Shown here: positions 13,552 to 39,179 of the stretch, one piece after another
Numbering within the stretch: the first letter of the stretch is position 1
Layout: each line of letters begins with the position of its first letter
IMG/VR virus record: IMGVR_UViG_3300049460_000196
Coordinates: 32,001-96,000 of that record
Source of the DNA: a virus
Direction: 5' to 3' (one strand)
DNA: 64,000 bases
Notes under the pieces: generated by a model
Database searches by the model: none
The model's input: only the letters and a program-made list of their open reading frames with translations
Told to the model about the DNA's origin: nothing
Translations under genes and position numbers: made by a program

Positions 13552-13779
13552 TTGGGAGTCACATATTATGCTGATTTTGTTTTTGACCATCTGAAGTTGA
13601 TTATTGAACTTGATGGTCGGCAACATCACCAAACTGTTGAATATGATTCCCGACGAGATGCGTATATTACCGCCAACTACGGGCTAAATGTGATTCGCAT
13701 AACTGCAAAGGAATATTTCAATAAAACAAGGGTCTCAGAGATTGAGACCCTTTTGATGCTACGCGGGGCAGGTCATTAG
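13552..13779 (+). pseudogene. DUF559/Vsr-like endonuclease fragment
   Basis: YYADF...LIIELDGRQH...RDAY...VIRI; frame extends upstream without a Met. Confidence 0.6.
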
Positions 13780-13780
13780 A

Positions 13781-13859
13781 CCGTCCGAGGGGATTCGAAC
13801 CCCTATTCCCAGCTCCAATTACGCTTCATGAGGTAGAAGCTCACGGCGGCTACAGACGG
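13781..13859 (-). tRNA. Atypical tRNA-Arg(TCT), D-loop displaced into the variable region, no CCA
   Basis: Acceptor CCGTCTG/CGGACGG, loop CT TCT AC, canonical T arm; TAATTGGA follows the anticodon arm. Confidence 0.6.
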
Positions 13860-13898
13860 TCTAATGACCCGCTCCCGATGTGGGAACAGGTCGGAGGA

Positions 13899-14231
13899 TT
13901 ACGATCCCAGGCGTTGATCCTTGTAGCACTCTGGGCAGTACGGAATATGACGAGTCTTGCCAGTCACAGCCAGATGATACGGATCGGCCACCACGTCATC
14001 AGTCGTGACGCTATGTGTTTTGCAGTGATGGGCAGTTGGCAGAGTATCGCCGCGGATAACTTTAGCCACCGTACCTGGGGTGACCAGATATTGTTCACGT
14101 GGGCCACCGTTAACGATGAAGTTACCGATTTTGGAATTTTCGAACAGGCCGAAGCCTTTGATTTTCAGATGGGTCTTGCCGATGACGTACTCGTAAGTTT
14201 TTTCGTCGACAGTAATTTTGCGATAAGACAT
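13899..14231 (-). CDS. Hypothetical protein with C-terminal CxxC
   Basis: 110 aa ORF with SD GAGG. Confidence 0.7.
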   Translation of the reverse strand: MSYRKITVDEKTYEYVIGKTHLKIKGFGLFENSKIGNFIVNGGPREQYLVTPGTVAKVIRGDTLPTAHHCKTHSVTTDDVVADPYHLAVTGKTRHIPYCPECYKDQRLGS

Positions 14232-14268
14232 TGTGATACCTCACTAAAAAGTGGTTGGGGTGAAACAT

Positions 14269-14348
14269 TGGTGCGCTTGTGTGGACTTGAACCACAGTGC
14301 GGGTGCAGCAAAAAACCGCCCCTGTTCTACCAGTTGAACTACAATCGC
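14269..14348 (-). tRNA. tRNA-like RNA with aberrant anticodon arm
   Basis: Normal D and T arms and CCA; anticodon region GGGGCGG-TTTTTT-GCTGCACC. Confidence 0.5.
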
Positions 14349-14384
14349 CATATACAACAAAAGCCGCTTGCGCGGCTTAGTTAT

Positions 14385-15273
14385 TTAGTACCACTGAGAT
14401 TACATGGTCCTCGTTGACGCTTCGAACATTATTAGCCAGGATTGCGTCCCAACCTTCTTTCGATATCCACTAGAGCCCCTTTCGGGTAATCTAGTACGCC
14501 AACATCATCGCCGTTTTAAGTCAGGCAGTAGACTTGACACAGGGTGCTATTCTACGACTTTCCATCCGTTGACATTCGACTGCCATTAGAGCTTGCGGGC
14601 CCTACGAACTTCTTTTCATAAACCAACTAGGCCTTGCGAGCTTCGCTGAACTTGATTAACTTTCGTCTCAAGTATTAGATGATTTTCACACCCTGCCGAG
14701 GTAGACTTTGCATTTTGTATAAGTAAACGGTTTGATCGTTCGCTCTTTCTCCAATGAAAGTGCCATTTCTGGCGTGCAACTCACTGCGACGTGCTACCTC
14801 AGCTGCTCCAAAGTCTTTTGGACTCCAGAATACAACACGCCACGTATCTTTCGCCTCGCGGGCTACCGGATCGTCTTTCTCGACTAATGTCCACACCCTT
14901 GCGGATAGTCCACCAACCGATAAAACTGCATCATACCTCTTGGGTGCGACCCCTCGAAACATAACACTACCTTTCCCCGTACAAGATGGCAAGTTGGATT
15001 TGTGATGAGACTCGGCTCCCGCCATGTTCTCCCTCAACTGATGTTCCCTAACGAGCAAGCCCGCTAGGCATCTAAGCCAAGGTTCTTTCCATCACTCTTG
15101 CGTCCCAATTATCTCCAGGATAACCTGAAGTGCTTCCTTTCGGAAGCCGGGTCGGCTTGCATAACAGAACCACTTGCATGGCGCGGCTGCGTGAGCTTGA
15201 CCGCTTTCCCCGGGTTGCCCCGGCTCTTCCTTCCAATATACGGCAAGCCGTATACCGTGGAGCTATGCCCCCA
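14385..15273 (-). ncRNA. Large structured ncRNA, GOLLD-like
   Basis: ~890 nt with no convincing ORF and many GNRA-capped hairpins; segments GTGTTGTATT...CAAAAG, GACTTAAAA and terminal GTAATCTCAG match my recollection of GOLLD; next to tRNAs. Confidence 0.6.
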
Positions 15274-15277
15274 AAAC

Positions 15278-15567
15278 TTGTTTTACTCATAAATTCTACA
15301 AATACCCATTAAAGGAACGGCTGATACTAATGGAGCGACCATTATAAGGTTGCGAACCTCGCAGTGAACAAGTCACCGGCATATCAACTATGCGTTAGTA
15401 TCGTCAGGCAGCCGCACTGGCTGTTACTCCCTATTGTCCACCCGCACACGGAACAATCAACTACCGCGGTCAGGTCGCGTGCCATCAGGCAGTAGGTAAT
15501 TGACGGCTAGGATTTACACCTAGTACGTTCCATTAATGAATACTCAGAAAACACATGAGTAAAACAA
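15278..15567 (-). ncRNA. ~290 nt structured ncRNA upstream of the GOLLD-like RNA
   Basis: 13 bp closing stem TTGTTTTACTCAT/ATGAGTAAAACAA plus nested stems; TTGACG-17-TAGAAT promoter at ~15644-15672. Confidence 0.55.
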
Positions 15568-15735
15568 ATTGCTTAAATTGTCCAAGAACATTTTGTTACG
15601 TTGCTTTGTAACCAGTGCTGCGTTGTGCATCACCACAGAACGTATTCTAAAGAAGCCATTTACATCCGTCAATACTTTTTTAGAAATAATTTACTTCTTT
15701 TTGCCAACTTATCAAAACACTAGTAACCACGAGCA

Positions 15736-16101
15736 TTAGTCCATGCCTGGATCTGGTGGCCTGTTGGGATCAGCATAGAACACATGGCGATCTTCAGCAA
15801 ATTTCCAAGCCTGAACATTACACACTAGACGAAGCATTACTACATCCGCAGGTGCCAAATCTTCTATGATGTAATAGTGGGTGTTGATACTGCGTGGATC
15901 AACACCTGCTAACTGGACACGTTGCTCGCGCCACAGTTTGCGAATATCATCCACACTCCAGTGGTCTAACCGATCACCCAGATAGCACGTTGAGTAGGCA
16001 TAATACCAGCGATCAGGAAACAGCCCGTCAAGGATTTCATGCAAACGCACGCACTCCACATAGGTGTGCTTGGCAGTGACACGGTTGTTGAGTAATGACA
16101 T
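15736..16101 (-). CDS. Hypothetical protein
   Basis: 121 aa ORF. Confidence 0.6.
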   Translation of the reverse strand: MSLLNNRVTAKHTYVECVRLHEILDGLFPDRWYYAYSTCYLGDRLDHWSVDDIRKLWREQRVQLAGVDPRSINTHYYIIEDLAPADVVMLRLVCNVQAWKFAEDRHVFYADPNRPPDPGMD

Positions 16102-16299
16102 CAGCCCAGCTTATTGTAGGCCATGAACAGTTCAGCGGCCAGCTCACATGCAGCCAAGATCAGGATGAAGATGCTCTCGTCAAAACTGACGAGACTTTTG
16201 GTGTTCATGTAGAGGTAGACGAATGCGAACAACATATTATTCTTATTCTTATCGTGTGAAGATGTTCAAGGGCCACTATGGGTGTGGCCCTTCTCAAAA

Positions 16300-16692
16300 T
16301 TATTCAAATTCCTGGTAGCATACAACCCGCTGCACAACACCATCGATAAACACAACAGCATCATCGCCATGTTTTGCTTTCCACAGTTGGGCGAAAGCAT
16401 CAAGGCTCAGATTGGTGGCATTGCGGGCATTATGAATATGAGTTGCATGCGACAAACTCAAAGTGCGTTCATGTATCCAGTCACGGGTGATGGGCAATTC
16501 CACTAACCCATTGACTTGCTGTTTCAGCTCAAGAAAATGAACTTGATACGCATCACCAAGAACATATTGTTTGATGCATGCCACCAGTTGCGGATTGTGC
16601 CGAAACGCTTTCCCTGCCTGCTTATGTCGGGTCAACTCACTAATCAATACGGGCACTACTTCATTAGGTATACGTTTTTGCTCAGTATTCAT
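16300..16692 (-). CDS. Hypothetical protein
   Basis: Start moved to MNTEQK to avoid overlap with the RNase P RNA. Confidence 0.6.
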   Translation of the reverse strand: MNTEQKRIPNEVVPVLISELTRHKQAGKAFRHNPQLVACIKQYVLGDAYQVHFLELKQQVNGLVELPITRDWIHERTLSLSHATHIHNARNATNLSLDAFAQLWKAKHGDDAVVFIDGVVQRVVCYQEFE

Positions 16693-16694
16693 GG

Positions 16695-17053
16695 TTTCCA
16701 ACGCCTCATAGCCGGGGTTCTGGTTCTCTTCCATCATTCATCTATGAGCATTACTGCTCATCCTCGCCGCCTTTCAAAACGGGTCATAGGTGCTACAACC
16801 CAGGCACTCGTCAGGTGGAGTCAACATGCCCTGTTTGTATTGCTGCGGAATCGTTGTGGTACAAGCGAAGCTTTTCCGTTCCCTATCTGATATCGAGTCG
16901 TTCAACACGGAGAACGGGGCACCGCAGAAGACACTTAGGCACATATATCAGTCAGTTTATCATTACTAGCTTCTCCCAACAGAGCGATAGCCCTACCTTG
17001 TGCAGCCCCGAACTTCCTCAAGCTTTCGCCTGCGATGGATCGAGCGTTGGAAA
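16695..17053 (-). ncRNA. rnpB: RNase P RNA
   Basis: P1 TTTCCAACGC/GCGTTGGAAA; CR-I GAGGAAGTTCGGGGC; CR-IV/V AGATGAATGAT...CAGAACCCCGGCTAT. Confidence 0.88.
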
Positions 17054-17159
17054 CTGTCGCCAGTATAAATGCTTTCCAGATTCGTATCAAGGATTATTTG
17101 ACGCCATGTGAAAACTTGATTACAAGGCTTTCGATAAATACTGTTTTAATGAGGTATTC

Positions 17160-17624
17160 ATGCGAGCTATCGAAATCTTCCAAAATTCAGTATTGAACGA
17201 ATCAGTTACTGAACAAATAATCGCCAAAGCACAGTCATTTGTTAATGCGGTAAAACGCATGAGTGGTATGGAGACCGCAATGGTGCAAGCTAATAGCTAT
17301 CAGCAAGAATTGTTGAATATTTTTGAGAACTGCGTAGATGCCGAAGATCTCAAAATGAAGATTCAGCAACTTGGTCAAACCATCACGATGTCACAAGTAC
17401 ATGAAGGTGTGGGATCCAAGATTGCCAAGGCATCACTGTTGACTCTGGCTGGTGTTGGTGCGGTAGTATGTGCCAAACTGGTCGGCATCTACAATCAAAT
17501 GGGCCAACCAGATGTTATTGACGGCAGTCATTTGAACATGGTTGGAGGTGTACTGTTTGGTGTTATTCCAGCCGTGTTATGTGCGATGCTGGCTATCTTT
17601 ATCGCCCTTGACAGCCGGGCTTGA
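17160..17624 (+). CDS. Late membrane protein
   Basis: TAAATA upstream, SD GAGG, two hydrophobic C-terminal segments. Confidence 0.7.
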   Translation: MRAIEIFQNSVLNESVTEQIIAKAQSFVNAVKRMSGMETAMVQANSYQQELLNIFENCVDAEDLKMKIQQLGQTITMSQVHEGVGSKIAKASLLTLAGVGAVVCAKLVGIYNQMGQPDVIDGSHLNMVGGVLFGVIPAVLCAMLAIFIALDSRA

Positions 17625-17737
17625 TGGCAAACAACCAATAAAATCAGGACACACTTGTTCTTCTTTTGGTGGATGAGTGGCCGAAAAATTAGTGCGGAAG
17701 ATCATTGGTCGTCCGCACTTGATGCAAGTATAACCCA

Positions 17738-18112
17738 TTAAATGGATACCGCCAACAGGTCAGTGGCCACAACATGTGGCGGCACGTTTGCACGTACATG
17801 ATGCTGAATCAACAGCATACCAATGTATTTGTCGAAGTTGCCGTCATCCGCGTCGTCTACCCAGCCGTTGTAAGGATACGTGGTTTCGTCGTATCCCTCT
17901 TCACCTTCCTGAAACTTCACTAATTCACTTACTGGCGTGGGATCGTCAATCTTCAGACTCAGCTTGTACTTAAAGTCACCGTCCTGATAGTCCAGCATCT
18001 TGTAGTCGTACTCCAATGCATCATCACGAAGCATCTGATACATCCAATCTGGCAAGTCATAGCCACGGATAGTGTGAATATAAGCTGGGCTGTGATCAGT
18101 TATTGCCAACAT
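17738..18112 (-). CDS. Hypothetical protein
   Basis: 124 aa acidic ORF. Confidence 0.65.
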   Translation of the reverse strand: MLAITDHSPAYIHTIRGYDLPDWMYQMLRDDALEYDYKMLDYQDGDFKYKLSLKIDDPTPVSELVKFQEGEEGYDETTYPYNGWVDDADDGNFDKYIGMLLIQHHVRANVPPHVVATDLLAVSI

Positions 18113-18115
18113 GAA

Positions 18116-18724
18116 TTATCCTTCAGATATTAAGCGCTTGATGGTCGCTGTGACCAATTGTGGATCGGCCTTCATTTGACGCATAACTTGCCCCATGAGC
18201 GAGCCGATTGCTTTGTCCTTACCAGACTTAAATTCCTGGACTGCCTTGGCATTCTGCGCCAAGACTGTTTTTACAATCGCATCCAGTTCACTCGTATCTG
18301 CCTCATCCAGTGCCGTAGAGGTCACCAAAACGTCTTCCAGCAAAAGTCCGATGTTGGACGTCAGCAGCACATCTTTCAGCAGCAAACGCGCCTGGTCTTT
18401 GCGAATCAGGTTTTTGTCGAGGAGCTGGGCAATTGCGAACAACGAACGCCCAGCACCATAGTGGTATTCTGGAATGTCGGTCAAGACCAAACCTGATTGA
18501 CTCAGTTGGCCTGACACGTCGTTGATCATGAACTTGTGGAAAACATCCAGATCAGAACTGAGGGTGAAACTTGCCGCATCTTTGCCGTGGAGATTAGCCA
18601 TGACAGCACGGTACATGAGTTCCTGATCTTTCATCACATTGATGTTTTGGTACAGTTTCAGCACCTCGGTATCATCAATGTGGGCAATACTGGCCACAAC
18701 AGCGGCAATTTCTAATTGTTTCAT
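18116..18724 (-). CDS. GatB/YqeY-domain protein
   Basis: C-terminal ELDAIVKTVLAQNAKAVQEFKSGKDKAIGSLMGQVMR; start moved to MKQLE, after the upstream RNA. Confidence 0.8.
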   Translation of the reverse strand: MKQLEIAAVVASIAHIDDTEVLKLYQNINVMKDQELMYRAVMANLHGKDAASFTLSSDLDVFHKFMINDVSGQLSQSGLVLTDIPEYHYGAGRSLFAIAQLLDKNLIRKDQARLLLKDVLLTSNIGLLLEDVLVTSTALDEADTSELDAIVKTVLAQNAKAVQEFKSGKDKAIGSLMGQVMRQMKADPQLVTATIKRLISEG

Positions 18725-18737
18725 ATACGTTAAATTC

Positions 18738-18968
18738 TGGTGGACGCGACGGGACTTGAACCCGCGTATTTCCTTGTACCCGGGCATTACTCCGGGATCT
18801 AACACAACTTGGAAAATCCGCTTCCCTTGCTGTTTATCGCCACCTGTTGCCAGGCCGCTATAGGTGCGGGGTAAAACCATGCGTTATGCCAGACTTGCGA
18901 CTTGGAACCCATTTTATTGGAACCCCTGCCTATTTTTAGGAGTGCATCGCCCTCTTTGCTACGCGCCC
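18738..18968 (-). ncRNA. Ala-acceptor tRNA-like RNA with ~160 nt in place of the anticodon loop (mini-tmRNA-like)
   Basis: GGGCGCG/CGCGTCC-A-CCA with G3-U70, D arm, T arm, long insert between TCCT and AGGA. Confidence 0.65.
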
Positions 18969-19145
18969 ATGTTCATATGGTATTGCCAGTTTACCGGGAA
19001 GTCAAGCGATCTATTACCGCCCAAGCTTTTAGCCGATCAATCTCGAGTGAAATTTCAAGATCCGTGTAACCTTCCAGTTCCATCACGGTGGCGATGTAGA
19101 AATATGGATCAGGCTGTAACGAAGCCCAGATTTTCTTGAGCCAAT

Positions 19146-19370
19146 TCATGATATCAACACTGCATTGGTGGAGATAACTTCGTTAATCAGTTCACGCTGT
19201 TTATCAGCCAAAGCCAAGGGAAACATGGGCGAATCGTATTGCTTCTGGGTTAAGTTGAAGGTTAGCTCAGCGGTCATCAACACACCAACACCCAACCCTT
19301 CCTGAAATTCTTTGGTGGCCCCGTTTACCACTACGGATAGCTTGTAGACTCGCTTGATCGTTTCGGTCAT
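19146..19370 (-). CDS. Hypothetical protein
   Basis: 74 aa, SD AGGAG. Confidence 0.65.
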   Translation of the reverse strand: MTETIKRVYKLSVVVNGATKEFQEGLGVGVLMTAELTFNLTQKQYDSPMFPLALADKQRELINEVISTNAVLIS

Positions 19371-19379
19371 AGCCAGCTC

Positions 19380-19628
19380 CTAGTGAACAGTGTTGTTGCC
19401 AGGCATTACCAGCGCATGATTGTTCCGGTACAGCAAGCCAGCATGAATCATATTCACTTCTTCCACAAACGCACGGATCTTTTCAGGCGATACCATGTCC
19501 TCTTCATGCGACTTGATATCTAGGACAAAAACTTCGACATCAAAGTCTGGTTTAGGCGGAAGAACTTCAGTCCGCTCACTCATGAATTTTTTCAACAGGT
19601 CACGCCATTCCAATTTCTTGTCGTCCAT
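19380..19628 (-). CDS. Hypothetical protein
   Basis: 82 aa, SD AAGGAG. Confidence 0.65.
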   Translation of the reverse strand: MDDKKLEWRDLLKKFMSERTEVLPPKPDFDVEVFVLDIKSHEEDMVSPEKIRAFVEEVNMIHAGLLYRNNHALVMPGNNTVH

Positions 19629-19682
19629 GATTGCTCCTTTTCTGATGTTTCATTTTACACGCAAGTGAACAATCATGCAAGC

Positions 19683-20057
19683 CTATTCTGGGAGATCGCT
19701 TGGGTGCATGCCATAGAGGTCAGCTACTGGTTCACGTAAGACAGTTTTGAGGTTGGCAACCAAATCTTCCAGATAAGCGAGGCGAGCTTCCAACTCGCTC
19801 TTTTGCTCTTTGTGCATGGCATGAGCAGTTGCATAAGTGTAGTCATCAGCATACGATAAACTACCGTAACCAGAAAGACTGTAACCAATCAATTGTGCGA
19901 ACTGATTTTGATCATCTTTGTCAACATCATCCATACAGGCGATGTCATTGAGGTTGATCACGTTGGTGTCAACTAACTGACGAATGATCTTATTGGCTTT
20001 GAAGCGAAGGGTGCCGTGCTGGTCGAGTTCCAGCGGCTGAATTGGATGTTTGGACAT
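19683..20057 (-). CDS. Phage hypothetical protein
   Basis: MSKHPIQPL...GTLRFKAN...QFAQLIGYSLSGY. Confidence 0.75.
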   Translation of the reverse strand: MSKHPIQPLELDQHGTLRFKANKIIRQLVDTNVINLNDIACMDDVDKDDQNQFAQLIGYSLSGYGSLSYADDYTYATAHAMHKEQKSELEARLAYLEDLVANLKTVLREPVADLYGMHPSDLPE

Positions 20058-20062
20058 GTTTT

Positions 20063-20134
20063 TGGTCCCTCGTACTGGAGTCGAACCAGTCAAGCACGCT
20101 TAGGAGGCACGCTGCTCAATCCCTGAGACGAGAG
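20063..20134 (-). tRNA. Compact tRNA-Arg(CCT)
   Basis: Acceptor CTCTCGT/ACGAGGG, 5-nt D loop, 6-bp anticodon stem, CT CCT AA, CCA. Confidence 0.75.
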
Positions 20135-20214
20135 GTAATGGTTAAGATATTGCCACTCTACTGGCAATACTTGATGCACACAATAATCTAAATACCAGTC
20201 ATTGGAGACATTAT

Positions 20215-21207: not shown

Positions 21208-21209
21208 TT

Positions 21210-22476: not shown

Positions 22477-22539
22477 CTGCTACTCCGTGTTCGTTTATCT
22501 TGTTCCTATTATAGGCGTAGATGAACAAACAATCAAGTA

Positions 22540-22752
22540 TTAGTCACGTTTGTTTGCCAGTTCGTTCAACTGTTTGCTGAGGTCGGCGTCGGTTTCGGCG
22601 GTGATCACGCCCAGCTTAACCATGTTGTTCATGGTACCACGATACACTTCAAACTCGCGGTTATCGAACGACTCAACCATCACGTGCTCGCGACCAGTGT
22701 CGCTGTCGAAGGTGTCGTAGTTGTGTTTGATCTGCGCGTTGATGATATACAT
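22540..22752 (-). CDS. Hypothetical protein
   Basis: 70 aa, SD AGGAG, promoter upstream. Confidence 0.7.
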   Translation of the reverse strand: MYIINAQIKHNYDTFDSDTGREHVMVESFDNREFEVYRGTMNNMVKLGVITAETDADLSKQLNELANKRD

Positions 22753-22817
22753 GGTCGCTCCTGCATTTGTGTAGAATCACATTATAGACGCAGATGAACA
22801 GAAAATCAAGTAATATT

Positions 22818-23095
22818 TGGTGGACCAGAGCGGAATTGAACCGCCACGACGTCGCGAACGTCTTTCCCAGTGCGGAGGACTTGTACTCACCTGAGTAGCC
22901 CAGCGAAGCACCAATACATGATGCTTTGGTGGACTATGGGGACTCGAACCCCCTCTCCCTGGCCCGTAATGATCAGCCTCGTGGGGCTTGTCCCACAATC
23001 TCCGCCATTAGATGTAGCGGTGCTGAATCACGCTTCTGAAGCTACTCGCTTGAAGCCGATCATTACGAGCGACTGTTGCCAGTCACCCAGCTGGT
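22818..23095 (-). ncRNA. Tandem Ala-acceptor tRNA-like RNAs
   Basis: Two T arms, each followed by ...GTCC-A-CCA (ends at 22818 and 22927); 15 bp stem in the upstream unit; D arms atypical. Confidence 0.5.
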
Positions 23096-26625: not shown

Positions 26626-26696
26626 TGGACCCACCTGCTGGGCTCGAACCAGCCTCACAGAGGTCGGAGCTCTGTGGCGTCTCCCTACGAGGTGAG
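26626..26696 (-). tRNA. Compact tRNA-Arg(CCG)
   Basis: Mini D arm CGT-AGGGAG-ACG, 7-bp anticodon stem, CT CCG AC, CCA. Confidence 0.72.
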
Positions 26697-32374: not shown

Positions 32375-32380
32375 ATTGTT

Positions 32381-32455: not shown

Positions 32456-32461
32456 ATTGTT

Positions 32462-32545
32462 TGGTCCCCTGGGCGAGATTCGAACTCGCAAAAGCCTGCC
32501 TTCTGACGACAGTAGGTGTACCAGATTTCCACTAGCCACCAGGGG
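32462..32545 (-). tRNA. Atypical tRNA-Leu(CAG)
   Basis: Same architecture as 26704-26787; GT CAG AA. Confidence 0.72.
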
Positions 32546-32554
32546 TAAAAATAC

Positions 32555-32727
32555 GTATTAGGGAAGGCAGGTTGGATTCAGGGATTGCCGCCCCTTGCAC
32601 CAACTTTCGGACTTGGCCCATTAGCCGCACAGACAGGGAACGTCGACTCCCCTATCCAGCATCCGACACTACCGTTCGACTTCCACATCAGTGCCTGTTC
32701 CTACCAGGTTGCTGCCTTCTCTAATAC
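32555..32727 (-). ncRNA. Unknown structured RNA inside the tRNA array
   Basis: 16 bp closing stem GTATTAGAGAAGGCAG/CTGCCTTCCCTAATAC with internal hairpins. Confidence 0.55.
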
Positions 32728-32756
32728 ATACTTGGTATTTCATACTTGAAAAACTT

Positions 32757-32834
32757 TGGTGGATATGGGGAGACTCGAACTCCCACACGACGGTCTCTGA
32801 AACCGCCAGGTATACCAATTCCCTTCACATATCC
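32757..32834 (-). tRNA. tRNA-Leu(CAG), short variable region
   Basis: TT CAG AG, CCA. Confidence 0.8.
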
Positions 32835-32836
32835 TT

Positions 32837-32912
32837 TGGTGCTGTTAGTTGGACTCGAACCAACCACCTCATACCTACCAAGTATGTGCTCTGCCAGATG
32901 AGCTATAACAGC
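32837..32912 (-). tRNA. tRNA-Thr(GGT)
   Basis: Cloverleaf, CCA. Confidence 0.9.
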
Positions 32913-32913
32913 A

Positions 32914-32989
32914 TGGACCCACCAACACGACTCGAACGTGCGACCTCCTGAGTCGAAATCAGGCGCTCTTCCAACTGAGCTACGGTGGG
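32914..32989 (-). tRNA. tRNA-Arg(TCG)
   Basis: Cloverleaf with A20, TT TCG AC, CCA. Confidence 0.9.
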
Positions 32990-32990
32990 A

Positions 32991-33275
32991 TTAACTTTTG
33001 AACACGGAGTCTAACCACCAATGTGGGAACAAACCGTCCTCATACAACTCTTGCTTGAACAACGTGCCCAAGCACATATCCTCTTTCCACATTTTCACAT
33101 GGACATTCAGATACATTTTACCAACAGCATAACCATTATTGCCTGACACTGGTGTGCCAAATGATTCGCCGTTAAACAACTCCAACATAGCGTCATCGCT
33201 ATGATCTAACACATGATCCCAGTGACGAGAAAAGACTCTGTACACTTCGCACATGCGTTTGAACTTCTTACTCAC
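32991..33275 (-). CDS. Hypothetical protein
   Basis: 94 aa ORF, GTG start. Confidence 0.6.
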   Translation of the reverse strand: MSKKFKRMCEVYRVFSRHWDHVLDHSDDAMLELFNGESFGTPVSGNNGYAVGKMYLNVHVKMWKEDMCLGTLFKQELYEDGLFPHWWLDSVFKS

Positions 33276-33381
33276 ACCGTTGATGGTTAGCTTTGGCTGA
33301 CCTTTGTTGCGTTTAGCTGTGACATGGCATCCTCCAGGGTTATTATTCGATTTCTATAGTCACGACGAAAGACGATGAGTC

Positions 33382-33495
33382 TTAGATTGCCAGTGCTGCC
33401 AGGCGCAAGGTGGTCGTGGTTGCCAAACCCAGAGTCAGAGCGGTTGCGGTAACGGTTAGCGATAAGTCAGCTTTTACGTAAGTGCGGTTGCTCAT
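33382..33495 (-). CDS. Thr/Leu/Ala-rich micro-ORF (candidate leader peptide)
   Basis: SD GGAG; MSNRTYVKADLSLTVTATALTLGLATTTTLRLAALAI. Confidence 0.55.
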   Translation of the reverse strand: MSNRTYVKADLSLTVTATALTLGLATTTTLRLAALAI

Positions 33496-33517
33496 ATGAG
33501 ACTCCATGGGTTAAAAG

Positions 33518-33593
33518 TGGTGGTGATGAAGGGATTCGAACCCCCGGTCCTCTCCGTATGAAGGAGTTGCTTTACCAACTAAGCTACATCACC
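33518..33593 (-). tRNA. tRNA with CAT anticodon (Met or Ile2)
   Basis: TT CAT AC, CCA. Confidence 0.85.
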
Positions 33594-33884
33594 GTATTGA
33601 TTGTATTGCATAAACCAAGCTGGGCAGCGTTGCCCGCAAAGTCCATTCAAATTCAGGTCTTGTTTGATTCAAGCTTATTATATCACCCAAAGGAAATACT
33701 CGACCGTCTGGGTGCAAATAAGTGAATCGCATTTTGTTTGGATACCATTGGTAGAAAGTAGCTGGGCAAACCTTTGGATCATCCCTTGGGATCAGTATGC
33801 CAGTCACACCGCAGTCGCACAGGCGATGCGTCATAACTGCTGCAACTATCTTCTTAAATGTCTCTACCGTCATGGTATCATGTT

Positions 33885-33961
33885 TGGTTGCGGATGGGTG
33901 GATTCGAACCACCGACGTAGAGGTTATGAGCCTCCTCTTCTGACCACTGAATTACACCGCA
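33885..33961 (-). tRNA. tRNA with CAT anticodon (fMet-like, bulged acceptor)
   Basis: CT CAT AA, CCA. Confidence 0.75.
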
Positions 33962-34051
33962 TTTGTTTGATCGACCCTCTTGCGAGGATGGCACTTTCTA
34001 CAGCAGCCACTCCGTCTGTGAGCTTACGCTCGATCACTAAGCCGAAACCTG

Positions 34052-34360
34052 TTATCGTTTGACCAACTTACCGTCAACGACTTTAAATTCTTCATCTTCG
34101 AGTGGATGTGGCTCATCCACTTTGCTATCTGGGGTTGCCAATGCAGGATTGAGAACCTTTACTGTCTCCCAGAGCTTCCAGTCTATCGAATCAATTTTGG
34201 TTTGCATCTGTGCCAACTTATCGTTGATGCCCTGGAGGCCATATGCCATCACACGAAACATCTCAAGTTGAACTTCAATTTGCAAACGCTGCAATATTAC
34301 GGGATCTTCTGAATCCAAAGCATTCCGGTAACTCTTTACTGTATTTTCTATATCGCTCAT
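34052..34360 (-). CDS. Hypothetical protein
   Basis: 102 aa ORF with promoter upstream. Confidence 0.7.
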   Translation of the reverse strand: MSDIENTVKSYRNALDSEDPVILQRLQIEVQLEMFRVMAYGLQGINDKLAQMQTKIDSIDWKLWETVKVLNPALATPDSKVDEPHPLEDEEFKVVDGKLVKR

Positions 34361-34428
34361 ATGTCTCTCGCAGGATCAAGTCCTTTCTTGTTATTATACG
34401 GACAAGAGACAACAGTGCAATATATGAT

Positions 34429-34505
34429 TGGTGGACAAGACCAGGAATCGAACCCGGCTTCCTCCGCCCTACTTCCAAGGCGACTGATTAGCGGATCACT
34501 TGCCC
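34429..34505 (-). tRNA. Ala-acceptor tRNA-like RNA with irregular anticodon arm
   Basis: GGGCAAG/CTTGTCC (G3-U70), T arm, CCA; loop region TTGGAAGTAG. Confidence 0.55.
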
Positions 34506-34511
34506 AATGAC

Positions 34512-34587
34512 TGGTTGTTGAGAACGGGATCGAACCGTTGACCTGAGGTTTATCGAACCCCTGCTCTACCGACTGAGCTACTCAACA
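34512..34587 (-). tRNA. tRNA-Ile(GAT)
   Basis: TC GAT AA, CCA. Confidence 0.85.
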
Positions 34588-34593
34588 TCATAT

Positions 34594-34657
34594 AACTGGA
34601 TGCCATTCTTTGGTTTTCGGAAAAGGAAAATTTAGAAAGGTTTGCTGTTGGCATCCA
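34594..34657 (-). ncRNA. ACAGCAA family 5 (short, pyrimidine-rich loop)
   Basis: TGGATGCC-A-ACAGCAA...GGCATCCAGTT. Confidence 0.65.
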
Positions 34658-34724
34658 AAACTTGGTAGGATAAGTCAAGTATTCCCTTTGGCGGGGAACG
34701 TAGTTTATCAAACTTATCCAAAAC

Positions 34725-34809
34725 TGGTACCCTGGGCGAGACTCGAACTCGCAAACCTTACGGCACATGGACCTGAACCATGCGTGTCTTCCAATTCCAC
34801 CACCAGGGC
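34725..34809 (-). tRNA. tRNA-Leu(CAG)
   Basis: Type II cloverleaf, CCA. Confidence 0.9.
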
Positions 34810-34824
34810 ATTACTGTATTACTA

Positions 34825-35027
34825 TCAAGTCGCGTGCTGCTACGCCAAAGGAGAGCTGCCCATACGCCGCCCAAGACGACTTTTGGCTACATGCTTCTAT
34901 CAACATTTATCCCTGCCACATCACCATTCTATACCACCACTAGGGTTCGGCATTATGGCATTTCGCGGCTCGGGTGCTTCGCTCCACTCATTAAGGATGG
35001 CTGCTTCTAAGCCAACCACAAGCTTGA
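34825..35027 (-). ncRNA. 23S rRNA GTPase-associated-centre (H43-H44, L11-binding) mimic
   Basis: GTTGGCTTAGAAGCAGCCATC matches 23S helix 43; GCGTAGCAGC resembles the helix 44 loop; closed by TCAAG/CTTGA. Confidence 0.75.
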
Positions 35028-35063
35028 CTCAAGTACCTGACTGGCTGTCAGGATTTGGAGAAA

Positions 35064-35139
35064 TGGTAGTTCCTGACGGGTTCGAACCATCGACATCCAC
35101 TTTGTAAGAGTGGCGCTCTACCAGCTGAGCTAAGGAACC
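35064..35139 (-). tRNA. tRNA-Val(TAC)
   Basis: Cloverleaf, CCA. Confidence 0.92.
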
Positions 35140-35141
35140 AT

Positions 35142-35217
35142 TGGGGTGAAGGATGGGGATCGAACCCACGACGACCGGAATCACAATCCGGGACTCTACC
35201 ACTGAGCTACCTACACC
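35142..35217 (-). tRNA. tRNA-His(GTG)
   Basis: G-1, C73, CCA. Confidence 0.92.
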
Positions 35218-35227
35218 ATTGAAACTG

Positions 35228-35896
35228 TTACGGAAACTTCATCTTTCGACCAAGCTTCCAATTTCGAGAAAGCCACAAATCAATGTCTTCTCGATTTATC
35301 TTTATCGTGCGCTTTTCTATTTCAGAAAATATCCACATAGTGCCATACTGCGAGTTACCAGTACCGCGTGCGCTTTTTGATACGTTATCTCCAATTTTCT
35401 TCTTGGTTTCTTCGGTATGATTTTTACCTTTAAAACTGGGAGGCGGCGTGCCTGGTAAATTGGCTATGCCTGCTGATGATCTATTGGTTTTTGTTTGTTT
35501 TGCCCATTCGGGGTCATTATCTCTCAACCATTGCTGCCTTTGTTGACTGATCTTATTCTTGGCAGTTTGACGACATGAATCGGCATTAATGATATTGTTA
35601 GGCCAACTGCTACCACCTAAAGATATGTTCATACACATCGGATCAGTTAGCATTTCGGCACACACCAATTCTGCTTCGCGTTCTCTCAACCACTCCCTAC
35701 TGAAGTAATGCTCGAGAATCGCACATACGTGATTTTCCTTACCGTGAACATTAACTGATCGCCCAAGCAGTTTGCCAGAACCAATATAACCGTCATTCAG
35801 GTCATAAGTGCTGTGCATACCCAAGTAATATTTTCCAGTCACAATGCACGTGGTGCGATATATGTAATGATACTGTCTGTTGGTCATATCCGCCAT
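35228..35896 (-). CDS. GIY-YIG (Seg-like) homing endonuclease with NUMOD3
   Basis: HYIYRTTC.VTGKYYLGMHST...YIGSG; FKGKNHTEETKKKI. Confidence 0.9.
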   Translation of the reverse strand: MADMTNRQYHYIYRTTCIVTGKYYLGMHSTYDLNDGYIGSGKLLGRSVNVHGKENHVCAILEHYFSREWLREREAELVCAEMLTDPMCMNISLGGSSWPNNIINADSCRQTAKNKISQQRQQWLRDNDPEWAKQTKTNRSSAGIANLPGTPPPSFKGKNHTEETKKKIGDNVSKSARGTGNSQYGTMWIFSEIEKRTIKINREDIDLWLSRNWKLGRKMKFP

Positions 35897-35933
35897 TGTA
35901 TATGACCATTGATATGGTGCAATAAAGTATTAA

Positions 35934-36007
35934 GGGGTGGCCACCGAGAATTGAACTCGAGTAAACGGGATCACAACCCGCGTCATTAACCACTATGATA
36001 TGGCCAC
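35934..36007 (-). tRNA. tRNA-His(GTG), second copy lacking G-1 and full CCA
   Basis: Cloverleaf, TT GTG AT. Confidence 0.8.
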
Positions 36008-36080
36008 ACCTTAATACTCTAAAGTGACGGTTACGAGCTCCGTCAATCGCTCTATATTGCGCTCGCTTTCTACTACTGTT

Positions 36081-36154
36081 TGGCAGGCCATGAGGGAATC
36101 GAACCCCCGTCCTTGGTTTTGGAGACCAGTACACTACCGTTGTGCTAATGACCT
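36081..36154 (-). tRNA. tRNA-Trp(CCA)
   Basis: Cloverleaf, CCA. Confidence 0.9.
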
Positions 36155-36160
36155 AATGTA

Positions 36161-36243
36161 TGGCAGGAGCTGTGGGACTCGAACCCACGTGGATTTCTCG
36201 ACGGCTTTGGAGACCGTTGCAATCGCCGCTATGCGAAACTCCT
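36161..36243 (-). tRNA. tRNA-Trp(CCA), long variable region
   Basis: CT CCA AA; 12-nt variable region. Confidence 0.82.
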
Positions 36244-36325
36244 GTTGAAACTAATTGTACCTGAGCCTCGAATTCCACGACGCCAGTCTATCCTTCAGGT
36301 ACGTTTTGACGTATTGCTTGGCAGC

Positions 36326-36658
36326 TTACGCTGCTTTGTCTGGATATTGCTCATCCAGAATATCGATGTAATACAGTGGGCTCATGCCAGGTTCCAGGAA
36401 ATGGACCTTGCTGAAGCCGTTTGCTTCATCGATCATGCTATCTTGTGGCTGGATGGCGCCGGCATACTTACGGAAGCCTGGCTTGTTCATCATCTTGCCT
36501 GTTGCTGGATCAATGGAACCCCATTCAGTCCAGTCTGTTTTACTACGACCATCAATCGGTTCAACGAAGTAGCGTTTGCCAGTACGTTGCGAGTTGACGA
36601 TAAAACGACCAGTGTCGTCTGTGTTGGTAAGGAACCGTTTAAGGAAGTCGGCATTCAT
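36326..36658 (-). CDS. Phage hypothetical protein
   Basis: MNADFLKRFLTNTDDTGRFIV.SQRTGKRYFVEPI. Confidence 0.75.
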   Translation of the reverse strand: MNADFLKRFLTNTDDTGRFIVNSQRTGKRYFVEPIDGRSKTDWTEWGSIDPATGKMMNKPGFRKYAGAIQPQDSMIDEANGFSKVHFLEPGMSPLYYIDILDEQYPDKAA

Positions 36659-36711
36659 GTTATTATTCTCGGGTTGATTTAAAATCTCCGAGACATTGTC
36701 ATCGGAGCAGC

Positions 36712-36738
36712 TTAGATTGTGATGACAAAGTGGTACAT
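36712..36738 (-). CDS. Micro-ORF MYHFVITI (candidate leader)
   Basis: SD GGAGG; ORF segment TTGTCATC pairs with downstream GATGACAA. Confidence 0.45.
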   Translation of the reverse strand: MYHFVITI

Positions 36739-36769
36739 GATAGCCTCCATGGCTGGTTAATAAAATGTT

Positions 36770-36846
36770 TGGAGCGGATAGCGAGGTTCGAACTCGCGAC
36801 ATTCACGTTGGCAACGTGATGCTCTACCAGACTGAGCTATATCCGC
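36770..36846 (-). tRNA. tRNA-Gly(GCC)
   Basis: Cloverleaf, U73, CCA. Confidence 0.92.
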
Positions 36847-36852
36847 ATTGTT

Positions 36853-36927
36853 TGGCGACGCCTAGGGGGATCGAACCCCTGACCTTCGGATGGACAATCC
36901 ACTGCTCTTCCGCTGAGCTAAGGCGCC
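36853..36927 (-). tRNA. tRNA-Asp(GTC)
   Basis: TT GTC CA, G73, CCA. Confidence 0.85.
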
Positions 36928-36980
36928 AATTTGTTAGGAAATTTCCTTAAAGATGATTTGCATTCATGTTTAAAGAAACT

Positions 36981-37056
36981 TGGTGGACGCGGTGGGGTTC
37001 GAACCCACGACCTTCGGATTAAGAGTCCGTTACTCTACCAGCTGAGTTACACGTCC
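36981..37056 (-). tRNA. tRNA-Lys(CTT)
   Basis: Cloverleaf, CCA. Confidence 0.92.
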
Positions 37057-37062
37057 GTACTG

Positions 37063-37138
37063 TGGTGGAAGTGGAGGGACTCGAACCCCCGTCGCACCGG
37101 TTAAGAGCCGGGCCTCTAGCCTGTTGAGTTACACTTCC
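37063..37138 (-). tRNA. tRNA-Lys(CTT)
   Basis: Cloverleaf, CCA. Confidence 0.88.
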
Positions 37139-37151
37139 AAGTGTATTTGAT

Positions 37152-37239
37152 TGGTGGGAGCAGTGGGGATCGAACCCACTCTGGACTTTCGTCTCGCCGG
37201 ATTAAAAGTCCGGTGCCTACCCAATTCGGCATTACTCCC
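37152..37239 (-). tRNA. tRNA-Lys(TTT) with long variable arm
   Basis: CT TTT AA; variable hairpin GAC-GAAA-GTC. Confidence 0.82.
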
Positions 37240-37249
37240 TGTGAAACAA

Positions 37250-37324
37250 TGGTAGGGCCGCAGGAGCTCGAATCCTGTTTGTCTGGTTAAAAGCCAGATA
37301 CTTCACCATTAAAGTTTCAACCCC
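37250..37324 (-). tRNA. tRNA-Lys(TTT)
   Basis: CT TTT AA, CCA. Confidence 0.85.
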
Positions 37325-37395
37325 TTTGATTTGACGTGGCACACGTCGATCTCGGGGGTGGCAGGAGCAATCCAATCAAACAACTACACTTGGAA

Positions 37396-37440
37396 TTACT
37401 TAGTCACCCCCGAAAGTTTGCCAGATTTGTCACTTTCCAT
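37396..37440 (-). CDS. Lys-containing micro-ORF MESDKSGKLSGVTK (candidate leader)
   Basis: SD AAAGGAG; 3' part TCGGGGGTGAC pairs with GCCACCCCCGA at 37342-37352. Confidence 0.55.
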   Translation of the reverse strand: MESDKSGKLSGVTK

Positions 37441-37470
37441 GACAGGCTCCTTTCAGAAATGTAATTTGGA

Positions 37471-37593
37471 TATTGCGATTTACCAGGTATCCCAATGACG
37501 AGACCAATCGCTCCAACAGGCTGGAGTTCCAGATGATGCGCATTCAACTCGCGTTGACCATACGTGCCACTCACGGCATAACACCTCGCAATA
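37471..37593 (-). ncRNA. Unknown structured RNA
   Basis: Closing stem TATTGCGA/TCGCAATA with internal hairpins. Confidence 0.4.
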
Positions 37594-37598
37594 AAACT

Positions 37599-37674
37599 TG
37601 GTGGAGGATATCGGGATCGAACCGATGACCTTTAGCTTGCAAAGCTACTGCTCTCCCAGCTGAGCTAATCCCCC
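37599..37674 (-). tRNA. tRNA-Ala(TGC)
   Basis: Canonical, G3-U70. Confidence 0.93.
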
Positions 37675-37764
37675 AGGGTGGCAATGTTTGTACCGGTATG
37701 GCAAACATCACCCGCACATGCCGACTAGAACCTTTTCAGGGGATGAGGACATGAACGTTTAACT

Positions 37765-37841
37765 TGGTCTCCAGTGCAAGATTCGAACTTGCGCCCCATG
37801 GTCCCAAACCACGTGGATTAACCTGACTTTCCTAACCGGAG
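37765..37841 (-). tRNA. tRNA-Pro(TGG)
   Basis: TT TGG GA, CCA. Confidence 0.88.
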
Positions 37842-37850
37842 ATAAAAACT

Positions 37851-37890
37851 TGGTATCTAGTACTGGTCTCGAACCAGTGACCTCATCGAT
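37851..37890 (-). pseudogene. 3' half (nt 37-76) of a split tRNA, probably Val(GAC)
   Basis: AT-CGATG-AGGTC-T arm-ACTAGAT-A-CCA. Confidence 0.85.
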
Positions 37891-38148
37891 TTAATCGATT
37901 GTACCGTTGACTTTTATTTGTACAAGATCGCTAAACATTTTAGAGATCCCACTCAACTCATTCAAATAATCTTCCGTCAACTTATCGTCTTCGGTTAATT
38001 CAACTTTTAAATTAAGTTCAGCTCTTTGTTCTTGTACTTGTTTGTGAATAAGTGCAGTGGCCACTTGCAATGTGTCGATTGGTAAACTACTCGCCAACAT
38101 AGCTACTGCATTCCGAAGTGCCAATATTTGTACTTGAGTTGATGACAT
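37891..38148 (-). CDS. Hypothetical protein (cassette cargo)
   Basis: 85 aa, SD AAGGAG; stop lies exactly at the insertion junction. Confidence 0.7.
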   Translation of the reverse strand: MSSTQVQILALRNAVAMLASSLPIDTLQVATALIHKQVQEQRAELNLKVELTEDDKLTEDYLNELSGISKMFSDLVQIKVNGTID

Positions 38149-38207
38149 ATGATTCTCCTTTAGAACAAACAGGATGCACATGTTTTTGTCATACCGCAAT
38201 ATTATTC

Positions 38208-38282
38208 TGGTACTCACGGAAGGAATTGAACCTTCGACCCTCTCCACGTCAAGGAGGCATTCTACCACTGAACTACGTGAGC
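38208..38282 (-). tRNA. tRNA-Val(GAC), carried in the cassette
   Basis: TT GAC GT loop, CCA. Confidence 0.88.
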
Positions 38283-38283
38283 A

Positions 38284-38637
38284 TTATCTTTTCTTGTTAC
38301 CCCAGGTAGGGGTCTGTCTGTGGCAGTTTGGACACAGAAATCTCAAATTATCTGGATGATTGTTGGTCTTTACCCCATCCATATGGTCGATATCCAAACT
38401 AAGTGGTTTACCGCACCAGTCACTTACTGCACAACATGAACAGGCATAACCGTCGCGTTCCGTTAAGAACTTGATCATCGCCGGGCTATTATAATGAACA
38501 GCACCTTGCAATATTTTCGGTTTGGTAACCGATATCCAGGTAAATGCGTGTTGGCATTTGTTCGAGCAGTATTTGCCATTAAATGCTGGCGGTTTATACT
38601 TTGTTGGTTTACCACAATTGATACATGATCTTTCCAT
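38284..38637 (-). CDS. HNH endonuclease
   Basis: CINCG..YCSNKC; LDIDHMDGVKTNNHPDNLRFLCPNCH; TATAAATA upstream. Confidence 0.9.
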   Translation of the reverse strand: MERSCINCGKPTKYKPPAFNGKYCSNKCQHAFTWISVTKPKILQGAVHYNSPAMIKFLTERDGYACSCCAVSDWCGKPLSLDIDHMDGVKTNNHPDNLRFLCPNCHRQTPTWGNKKR

Positions 38638-38675
38638 ATAAGCACCTTTTCAGGTATTTATAAGAGCGATCTGGT

Positions 38676-38710
38676 TCAACGATGTGCTCTACCAACTGAG
38701 CTAACTAGAT
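38676..38710 (-). pseudogene. 5' half (nt 1-35) of the split tRNA
   Basis: ATCTAGT-TA-D arm-CATCG-TT-GA; pairs with the 3' half at 37851. Confidence 0.85.
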
Positions 38711-38719
38711 ATTGAAACT

Positions 38720-38794
38720 TGGCAGCGAATCTAGGGCTCGAACCTAGGACCTTGAGATTCAAAATCTCCTGCTCTACCTCTGAGCTAATCCGCA
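38720..38794 (-). tRNA. tRNA-Gln(TTG)
   Basis: Cloverleaf, G73, CCA. Confidence 0.88.
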
Positions 38795-38803
38795 ACTGAA
38801 ACT

Positions 38804-38883
38804 TGGCGACCTAGATGGGTATCGAACCCACCTGAATATCTTCCGTGACAGGGAAGTGACCACTCCATGCAGTCCCCTAGGCC
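38804..38883 (-). tRNA. tRNA-Asp(GTC)
   Basis: CT GTC AC, CCA. Confidence 0.85.
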
Positions 38884-38900
38884 ATATTACTAATTGTCAA

Positions 38901-38972
38901 TGGTCCCTCGTGATGGAGTCGAACCACCCTATTAGCGTTCGTAGCGCCAATGCCGTATCCCACGGACGAGAG
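38901..38972 (-). tRNA. Compact tRNA-Arg(ACG)
   Basis: Same architecture as 20063-20134; CT ACG AA. Confidence 0.75.
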
Positions 38973-38984
38973 AAATATTCTTAG

Positions 38985-39070
38985 TTGCGGGCCCTGGATT
39001 TGAACCAGGACAAGCATTAGATGTCTCGGGATTATGAGCCCCGCGTGTTACCAGGTTACACTAACCCGCG
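38985..39070 (-). tRNA. Initiator tRNA-fMet(CAT) with long variable region, no CCA
   Basis: C1-A72 mismatch, G-rich anticodon stem, 17-nt variable region. Confidence 0.75.
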
Positions 39071-39100
39071 ACTAAGAATACTTGGTATTACATACTTGAA

Positions 39101-39179
39101 TGGTGCGTCAGGCAGGGTTCGAACCTGCATGTGTCCAGTTACCTTTCGCCTGGTTCGTAGCCAAGGGGGATACTGACGC
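39101..39179 (-). tRNA. Atypical tRNA-Arg(ACG), D-loop displaced into the variable region
   Basis: GCGTCAG-TA-TCCCC-CTTGG-CT ACG AA-CCAGG-CGAAAGGTAACTGGACACAT-T arm-CTGACGC-A-CCA. Confidence 0.68.

Follow-up and report, generated by a model that had tools for sequence, protein, structure and literature searches.

Probable arginine transfer RNAs with a rewired, non-cloverleaf chain order in a phage tRNA array

Two transfer RNA (tRNA) genes of a large phage carry the parts of an arginine tRNA in an order that departs from the cloverleaf. Both lie on the minus strand of the window analysed here, a stretch of 64,000 nucleotides (nt) comprising bases 32001-96000 of one IMG/VR virus record of 113,103 base pairs (bp) (IMGVR_UViG_3300049460_000196), and are referred to as copy 1, a tRNA-Arg(UCU) at 13781-13859, and copy 2, a tRNA-Arg(ACG) at 39101-39179. 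Comparison with relatives in other phages argues that both are probably working elongator tRNA-Arg of a phage-borne, non-cloverleaf class. In the fold that we propose, the chain would start with the acceptor 5' strand, U8 A9, a descending D-stem strand (the equivalent of canonical 22-25) and the anticodon arm. It would continue through a connector of 2-5 nt, an ascending D-stem strand (the equivalent of canonical 10-13) and the D-loop A14 R15 Y16 U17 G18 G19 A20, and would end with a variable segment of about 5 nt finishing in Y48, the T arm and the acceptor 3' strand. Segment 10-21 would have shifted from before segment 22-43 to after it.

Copy 1, a member of what we call the long subtype, is 79 nt long and does not encode CCA. 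A 7-bp acceptor strand (CCGUCUG), U8 A9 and GCCGC lead into a 6-bp anticodon stem with the 7-nt loop CUUCUAC (anticodon UCU, 13835-13837), which is followed by 22 nt reading AAGCG-UAAUUGGA-GCUGGGAAU, the T arm and the acceptor 3' strand CGGACGG. All seven acceptor positions pair, and the T stem AGGGG/CCCCU carries the loop UUCGAAU. The D-loop-like bulge UAAUUGGA (13814-13821) supplies the equivalents of A14 A15 U16 U17 G18 G19 A20. Nucleotides 8-14 (UAGC followed by CGC, 13846-13852) form the descending strand of two short helices, designated A and B, that together are equivalent to the D-stem: UAGC pairs with GCUG at 13810-13813 in helix A, and CGC with GCG at 13822-13824 in helix B.

Copy 2 belongs to the short subtype, in which helix A is lacking, and has 76 nt followed by an encoded CCA (39101-39103). 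It occupies exactly the gap between the tRNA-Val and tRNA-Met genes of the array. Its parts are a 7-bp acceptor strand (GCGUCAG), U8 A9, UCCCC, a 5-bp anticodon stem with the loop CUACGAA (anticodon ACG, 39156-39158), 20 nt reading CGAAAGG-UAACUGGA-CACAU, the T arm, the acceptor 3' strand CUGACGC, A73 and CCA. Acceptor pairing is again 7/7, with a T stem GCAGG/CCUGC and loop UUCGAAC. After the D-loop-like segment UAACUGGA (39134-39141) comes CACAU, with its U corresponding to U48. Nucleotides 11-14 (CCCC, 39166-39169) are the descending D-stem strand, of which C11 and C12 have G38 and G37 (39142-39143) as partners while U8 and A9 stay free; in relatives the same columns read CGC/GCG, CAC/GUG, CGG/CCG and CUC/GAG. 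Both anticodon loops have seven nucleotides with U33 and a purine at 37. A D-arm hairpin between nt 9 and 26 is absent from both copies, which have only 5 nt between A9 and the anticodon stem.

The layout is shared by a large family. A search of IMG/VR with the pattern GTAAYTGGA-N8-12-GGTTCGAA gave at least 119 loci, and 101 of the 121 pattern matches listed combine a T stem with acceptor pairing of 6-7/7 at the expected distance, yielding at least 78 distinct real relatives on unrelated contigs. Arginine anticodons are the only ones among the 78 members listed (UCU 35, ACG 34, UCG 5, CCU 4), and CCA is encoded in 50 of the 79 filter-passing sequences listed, which comprise these 78 members and one chance hit. 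Members have anticodon loops of 7 nt that start with YU and, in the motifs observed, end with A or C.

Pairing was assessed in an alignment of 77 distinct sequences (A1). Under the proposed structure 92.6% of the cells are paired, compared with 62.0% after shuffling, and the covariation score is 0.743 versus 0.194, a value reached by none of 500 shuffles; sliding the partners by 1-3 columns lowers pairing to 37-46%. Covariation in the acceptor, anticodon and T helices is that of an ordinary tRNA, with the acceptor 99.6% and the T stem 99.5% paired. Beyond these, helix B joins the nt 11-14 region, three nucleotides after position 10/11, to the three nucleotides immediately 5' of UAAYUGGA. Its first pair is an invariant C-G, and its columns 13-39 hold GC in 34 sequences, CG in 30, AU in eight, UA in three and GU in one, with one unpaired. 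Helix A, found in the long subtype only, joins U8 A9 N10 N11 to the four nucleotides directly following the motif, and its pair 10-50 is GC in 21 sequences, AU in nine, CG in one and unpaired in none. Copy 1 has both helices (UAGC/GCUG and CGC/GCG), and copy 2 has CC/GG. A separate candidate, a self-contained D-arm hairpin within the variable region (pre-loop with post-loop), was rejected, with only 36.1% of its cells paired.

The elbow also appears to be retained. Wherever the second purine of the motif is A, a U precedes the T stem (78/78 among the matches listed), as in a 15:48 Levitt pair; when that purine is G (pattern GTAGYTGGA, n=16), the base before the T stem is C in 12 cases, G in three (the phiCbK group) and U in one. 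The G15 members have arginine anticodons throughout, with GCG and CCG added to those already named.

As judged from the pairing, the strand that precedes the motif and runs into A14 would correspond to canonical 10-13, and the strand that leads from A9 into the anticodon stem to canonical 22-26. No cyclic rotation of the cloverleaf gives the resulting segment order, 1-9, 22-43, connector, 10-21, 45-48, 49-76. The canonical fold places residue 9 next to pair 12:23, residue 45 next to pair 10:25 and residue 21 next to 46-48. The new joins therefore link residues that are already spatial neighbours.

These results bear on the first-pass annotation of this DNA, which had described genes at 13781 (TCT) and 39101 (ACG) with a D-loop-like motif after the anticodon arm. 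That layout is confirmed on the minus strand. The annotation also placed a short linker between the acceptor and anticodon stems; five nucleotides are indeed there, but they form a paired D-stem strand and are not a linker. Similarly, its view that the D-loop had moved to the variable region was right as far as it went: the moved piece comprises the D-loop and one strand of the D-stem, and it forms no hairpin of its own, the strand instead pairing with a partner on the far side of the anticodon arm. The rewired fold that it suggested is borne out by the covariation of nt 11-14 with the three nucleotides before UAAYUGGA and, in the long subtype, of nt 8-11 with the four after it. A kept elbow is likewise indicated by the canonical T loop and the Levitt-pair covariation.

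The family also follows the rules of amino-acid identity. Bacterial tRNA-Arg is specified by A20, C35 and G36 or U36, with position 20 serving as the D-loop determinant of arginyl-tRNA synthetase. Motif and 15:48 covariation suggest that the base after GG in the rewired tRNAs is equivalent to position 20. This base is A in all 78 arginine-anticodon members listed, whose anticodons are NCG or NCU, and in both copies, which read GGA and whose anticodons UCU and ACG satisfy C35 and G36/U36. When the scan was repeated with a base other than A after GG, it returned 21 real members, all with U at this position and discriminator A, and with the anticodons UAU (12), GAU (5), CAU (3) and, in one case, a valine-like one. 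Canonical genes of the same phage can be set beside these: the D-loop of Arg(UCG) contains GGA (AGUUGGAA), and those of Ile(GAU) contain GGU in two of three genes and GGA in the third (40100-40174). The letter after GG thus tracks the amino acid of the anticodon, as expected if synthetases read position 20, and the A20-like arginine determinant proposed in the first-pass annotation gains support from this switch. Genes encoding arginyl-tRNA synthetase (PF00750) were found neither in this contig nor in three complete carrier phage genomes, leaving the host enzyme as the sole candidate for charging.

The isoleucine-type (UAU, GAU) and CAU members have the same rewired layout (IMG/VR loci L251, L258, L264, L293, L311, L317 and others). 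The core has accordingly been seen with arginine, isoleucine and CAU types, and the near-identity of the isoleucine-type and CAU cores to that of the short arginine subtype suggests that a single scaffold has switched isotype.

Standard tools miss most of these genes. With flanks included, ARAGORN missed 74 of the 78 members and called one correctly; it made no call at copy 2, and its call on copy 1, at 13779-13867, is 8 nt out of register. Searches of 12000-42000 at E<=5 left both copies unmatched by the Rfam tRNA model RF00005 (threshold 29 bits) and by the Rfam tRNA-Sec model. Other Rfam matches in this region were set aside: an antisense match of a plastid untranslated-region model on copy 2 is noise, and the YrlA/bacterial Y RNA module (RF02553) gave weak matches of 22-27 bits on other tRNA genes and none at copies 1 or 2.

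A covariance model built from the 77 sequences (R1) scores copy 1 at 75.5 bits and copy 2 at 73.6 bits; both copies are in the training set and so match partly by construction. Canonical tRNAs of the window reach at most 28 bits, and overall members score 42-89 bits and canonical tRNAs at most 30 bits. Carriers outside the training set score 56-71 bits. The scores of both copies are far beyond chance. A homolog search with a custom model had been proposed in the first-pass annotation, and R1 recovers members in IMG/VR and in cultured phages, as well as a third rewired gene of the same phage. This Arg(UCU) gene lies outside the window, on the minus strand (G000:C1:18845-18920), scores 58.9 bits, has the loop UAAGCGGA and encodes CCA. 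Directly before it is a fragment resembling a canonical D-arm (AGCUCAGAUGGAUAGAGCA), the rest of that tRNA being absent.

Copy 1 found no match by blastn against cultured phages, and copy 2 matched 11 records. Microbacterium phage Zooman has two rewired copies (89187-89262 and 95033-95111), one of them beside a canonical Arg(ACG), Mesorhizobium phage Cp1R7A-A1 has one and Streptomyces phage Mildred21 has three to five. Within the phiCbK group, phiCbK, CcrColossus, CcrPW and every other matched member carry one copy each, in 31 records (30 Caulobacter phages and one Brevundimonas phage). The phiCbK gene is at NC_019405.1 52333-52412, and this phage makes up a standard laboratory pair with Caulobacter crescentus. 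The CcrColossus/CcrPW copy is 79-85% identical to the other copies of this group, and between the phiCbK and CcrColossus orthologues changes run through the whole anticodon stem, all of them compensated, and the core is conserved. All copies examined sit within tRNA arrays. The gene has been overlooked in annotation: of the 31 phiCbK-group records, the 30 listed have no annotated feature at the matching position, nor is the gene annotated in Zooman, A3Wally, Cp1R7A-A1, Mildred21 and related Streptomyces phages. Besides phiCbK, 35 further records of cultured phages lack an annotation of it.

We also scanned 596 gigabases of bacterial and archaeal assemblies, assessing the first 120 pattern matches, for which the counts are lower bounds. 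Eight of these are real members, all on contigs of metagenome-assembled genomes: four from Blastocatellia, one from Methyloligellaceae, one from a Bacteroidetes and two from a single deltaproteobacterial genome. Seven of the eight listed have 13-25 tRNA genes in the surrounding 8 kb, and the eighth has three in the 1-kb contig L137. Given these tRNA-rich contigs, the class appears to travel in phage-type arrays, and we do not claim that it is strictly confined to phages. Public sequencing runs were searched for the sequence, and no RNA run was among those that hold it; the single run containing it in full is a rhizosphere metagenome, from which this DNA may have come.

Taken together, these data allow us to propose how the rewired genes might function. 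The chain would form a three-way junction with the D-stem stacked on the anticodon stem, and contact between the D-loop GG and the T loop, together with 15:48 pairing, would keep the L-shape and its elbow. In the long subtype (copy 1), the D-loop would become a bulge, closed off by four added pairs between nt 8-11 and the four nucleotides after the loop; U8 and A9 would remain unpaired in the short subtype (copy 2), as in an ordinary tRNA. The genes would share the transcription of the array, and RNase P would process the transcripts. The host arginyl-tRNA synthetase would charge the products via A20, C35 and G36/U36, and EF-Tu would carry them, holding the intact acceptor/T helix of 7+5 bp. 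Copy 2 would then decode CGU and CGC, and copy 1 AGA.

Several observations weigh against this reading. The D-stem of copy 2 and of many short-subtype members has only two Watson-Crick pairs plus C-A oppositions, and across A1 the third pair of helix B (14-38) is paired in 35 of 77 sequences and unpaired in 42. Minimum-energy folds of the single sequences miss the comparative structures of the two copies, which are less stable by 2.8 and 3.4 kcal/mol. Copy 1 has U73, lacks CCA and has its 3' end buried by a helix. The family pattern itself fixes GUAAYUGGA and GGUUCGAA, making the conservation of these letters in A1 circular, and counts across relatives are not independent events given their shared ancestry. 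Natural variation of the motif can be read from 18 extra members found with R1 and from the cultured-phage copies, which include UAAGCGGA, UUAAAGGA, UAGCAGGA and UAAUGGA.

The genes might instead be decaying pseudogenes that lost the D-arm by deletion and gained junk in the variable region. Standard finders do reject both, large phage arrays do contain broken tRNA genes, and the window holds several irregular ones. However, compensatory changes occur in every helix, the new one included, across at least 78 relatives, and the tertiary pair covaries as well; the gene is retained in 30 Caulobacter phage records and one from Brevundimonas, and the diversity of acceptor and anticodon stems excludes a single recent clone. 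The covariation therefore excludes pseudogenes, an explanation to which we attach almost no weight, and agrees with the first-pass view that both copies are under selection. We regard it as very improbable, too, that the encoded order is that of a precursor, with RNA cutting and rejoining, of the kind known for permuted or split tRNA genes, restoring a cloverleaf in the mature RNA. The phage encodes Tpt1/KptA, an enzyme of an RNA-ligation pathway (145.6 bits), which would suit such a route, but Tpt1 is absent from four complete carrier genomes (Zooman, Cp1R7A-A1, Mildred21 and phiCbK), and the new pairing itself covaries, implying that the rewired form folds. Moreover, because the order is not a cyclic rotation, circularising and re-cutting cannot restore the cloverleaf; that would take two cleavages and two ligations in trans.

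A further alternative, which we consider unlikely, is that these are tRNA-shaped RNAs acting outside translation, as nuclease decoys, as sponges for arginyl-tRNA synthetase, or as modules of other tRNA-derived RNAs of the phage. Against this, the members keep all that translation requires: 7+5 bp acceptor/T helices, 7-nt anticodon loops and, in 50 of 79 of the matches listed, CCA. They carry six different arginine anticodons, and their position-20 letter switches with the anticodon amino acid, which a decoy would have no need to do. The CCA ends, the range of arginine anticodons and the identity switch are left unexplained by this alternative, and the YrlA model does not match at either locus. 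Such a role would nonetheless suit a phage rich in odd RNAs and RNA-repair genes (GOLLD RNA, Tpt1/KptA), the locked acceptor end of the CCA-less copy 1, and Zooman, whose canonical Arg(ACG) beside the rewired gene means that the rewired copy is not strictly needed there.

The buried 3' end of copy 1 can be placed in a wider context. Together with its leader and trailer (13771-13870, minus strand), copy 1 forms an acceptor helix about 10-13 bp longer that covers the discriminator and folds at -47.5 kcal/mol (z -5.45). Such an extension occurs in none of the 78 relatives among the matches listed. The window has seven CCA-less tRNA genes, and five of them have a leader-trailer extension: copy 1 and, with 13-23 bp on the same strand, Met (38984-39070), two Asn (39562-39647 and 39675-39748) and Pro (40604-40678). 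The CCA-less His (35934) and Gln (39383) genes have no contiguous base pairs of this kind, and leader-trailer pairing in the CCA-encoding tRNA genes of the window amounts to 0-2 bp. The extended helix thus tracks the missing CCA and is not a property of the rewired fold. An intrinsic terminator-like hairpin with a 10-bp stem and a U run (13728-13752, minus strand; tail GTTTTATT) stands 18 nt past this helix.

Both copies lie in what is a translation and RNA island within a large phage genome. CheckV estimates the completeness of the 113,103-bp record at 27%. A tail protein is about 45% identical to its counterparts in phiCbK-like giant siphophages of Caulobacter and Brevundimonas, and at the DNA level no close match was found among the cultured phages compared. 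ARAGORN reports 50 tRNA genes and one call resembling a transfer-messenger RNA (tmRNA) on the minus strand of the window, a 51-gene array. All features given below are on this strand. Some 520 nt upstream of copy 1 there is a full-length GOLLD RNA (14391-14843; Rfam RF02032, 203 bits, E 7e-56), with a terminator-like hairpin after it at 14361-14378. A full-length match to bacterial RNase P RNA class A at 16692-17052 (48.7 bits, E 2.7e-12, below the gathering score of 100) may be a divergent, phage-encoded RNase P RNA adjoining a very large tRNA array. Protein genes of the island include the Tpt1/KptA RNA 2'-phosphotransferase (6817-7374), a GatB/Yqey-domain protein (18116-18880, 68 bits), a QueC-like protein with a C-terminal match (9619-10224) and a weak match, under cut-off, to a PP-loop tRNA-methyltransferase-type protein (11821-12762). 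Also present are a putative permuted tmRNA called by ARAGORN (22538-23017, tag ASLKCIVVP), another putative tmRNA with a weak Rfam match (18738-18826, 20.5 bits) and a weak match to positions 1178-1237 of the archaeal large-subunit ribosomal RNA model (34966-35023, 19 bits, E 0.08).

Two compact arginine tRNA genes of another odd design, at 38901-38972 (ACG) and 26626-26696 (CCG), both encode CCA. They are without the 8-9 linker and have a 3-bp D stem directly after the acceptor, the loop (U/A)GGGA(U/G)A, an anticodon stem of 6-7 bp and a variable region of 2-3 nt. The Rfam tRNA model matched neither, and the gene at 38901-38972 has no relative in cultured phages. This gene and copy 2 are the only genes of the phage with an ACG anticodon; CGU and CGC make up 137 of the 187 arginine codons in 14 open reading frames of the window. 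A further tRNA-like gene of 84 nt with CCA (32462-32545), called Arg(CCU) by ARAGORN, has a 5-bp D arm, a 7-nt spacer ACACCUA and an anticodon-type loop GUCAGAA (CAG).

If the favoured reading of the two genes as working tRNA-Arg is correct, they would represent a natural L-shaped adaptor with a different chain topology that is served by ordinary bacterial synthetases, EF-Tu, RNase P and ribosomes. This would bear on how much of the cloverleaf is truly required, on how arginyl- and isoleucyl-tRNA synthetases read the D-loop corner, and on the design of orthogonal tRNAs. On the practical side, phage tRNA counts and analyses of codon supply are incomplete, with most members missed by finders. 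More speculatively, and with considerable doubt on our part, the rewired core might be a second general tRNA architecture, born in phages and spread by isotype switch, and kept because its altered chain path hides the RNA from tRNA-directed nucleases of host or phage, or from further enzymes that recognise the D-arm hairpin or the variable loop, yet leaves charging by host synthetases intact. Full-text literature searching, in which coverage of subscription journals is thin, found no description of the rewired layout.

Finally, a comparison with known systems places the rewired tRNAs among other departures from the cloverleaf. With canonical class I tRNA-Arg (RF00005), such as the phage's own Arg(UCG) at 32914-32989, they share the 7-bp acceptor, the 5-bp T stem with its UUCGAAU-type loop, the anticodon loop CU-NNN-A, the D-loop A14 R15 Y16 U17 G18 G19 A20, Y48 and the identity set; they differ in having segment 10-21 3' of the anticodon arm and a three-way, not a four-way, junction. 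The D-arm-lacking tRNAs of mitochondria have lost the D-loop and its GG/T-loop contact and need adapted partner proteins. Like these forms, found as metazoan mt-tRNA-Ser(AGY) and in nematodes (PMC7609411), the rewired tRNAs have no hairpin between acceptor and anticodon arm and a longer anticodon-side helix, but they keep a D-loop-like AAYUGGA, a canonical T loop and the 15:48 pair, and their hosts are ordinary bacteria. The same 2020 review of non-canonical tRNAs contains nothing like the rewired layout outside mitochondria (PMC7609411). The allo-tRNAs, 8/4 or 9/3 tRNAs of bacteria and alphaproteobacterial phages, have cloverleaf order with altered helix lengths, and the rewired layout is absent from the paper that describes them (Mukai et al., PMC5389517). 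Both groups are non-standard tRNAs that occur in phage tRNA clusters and emerged from metagenome mining, yet the rewired tRNAs retain 7/5 and change the strand order instead. Circularly permuted tRNA genes of the Cyanidioschyzon merolae type are cyclic rotations that are repaired by processing. They share the departure from cloverleaf order, whereas the rewired order is a transposition beyond any rotation, with a new pairing that is itself selected. Viral tRNA-like structures, such as the 3' one of turnip yellow mosaic virus, are L-shaped and recognised by a synthetase despite a non-tRNA chain topology, and are part of a genomic RNA with no decoding role. In contrast, the rewired tRNAs are free-standing genes, with anticodons, within tRNA arrays.

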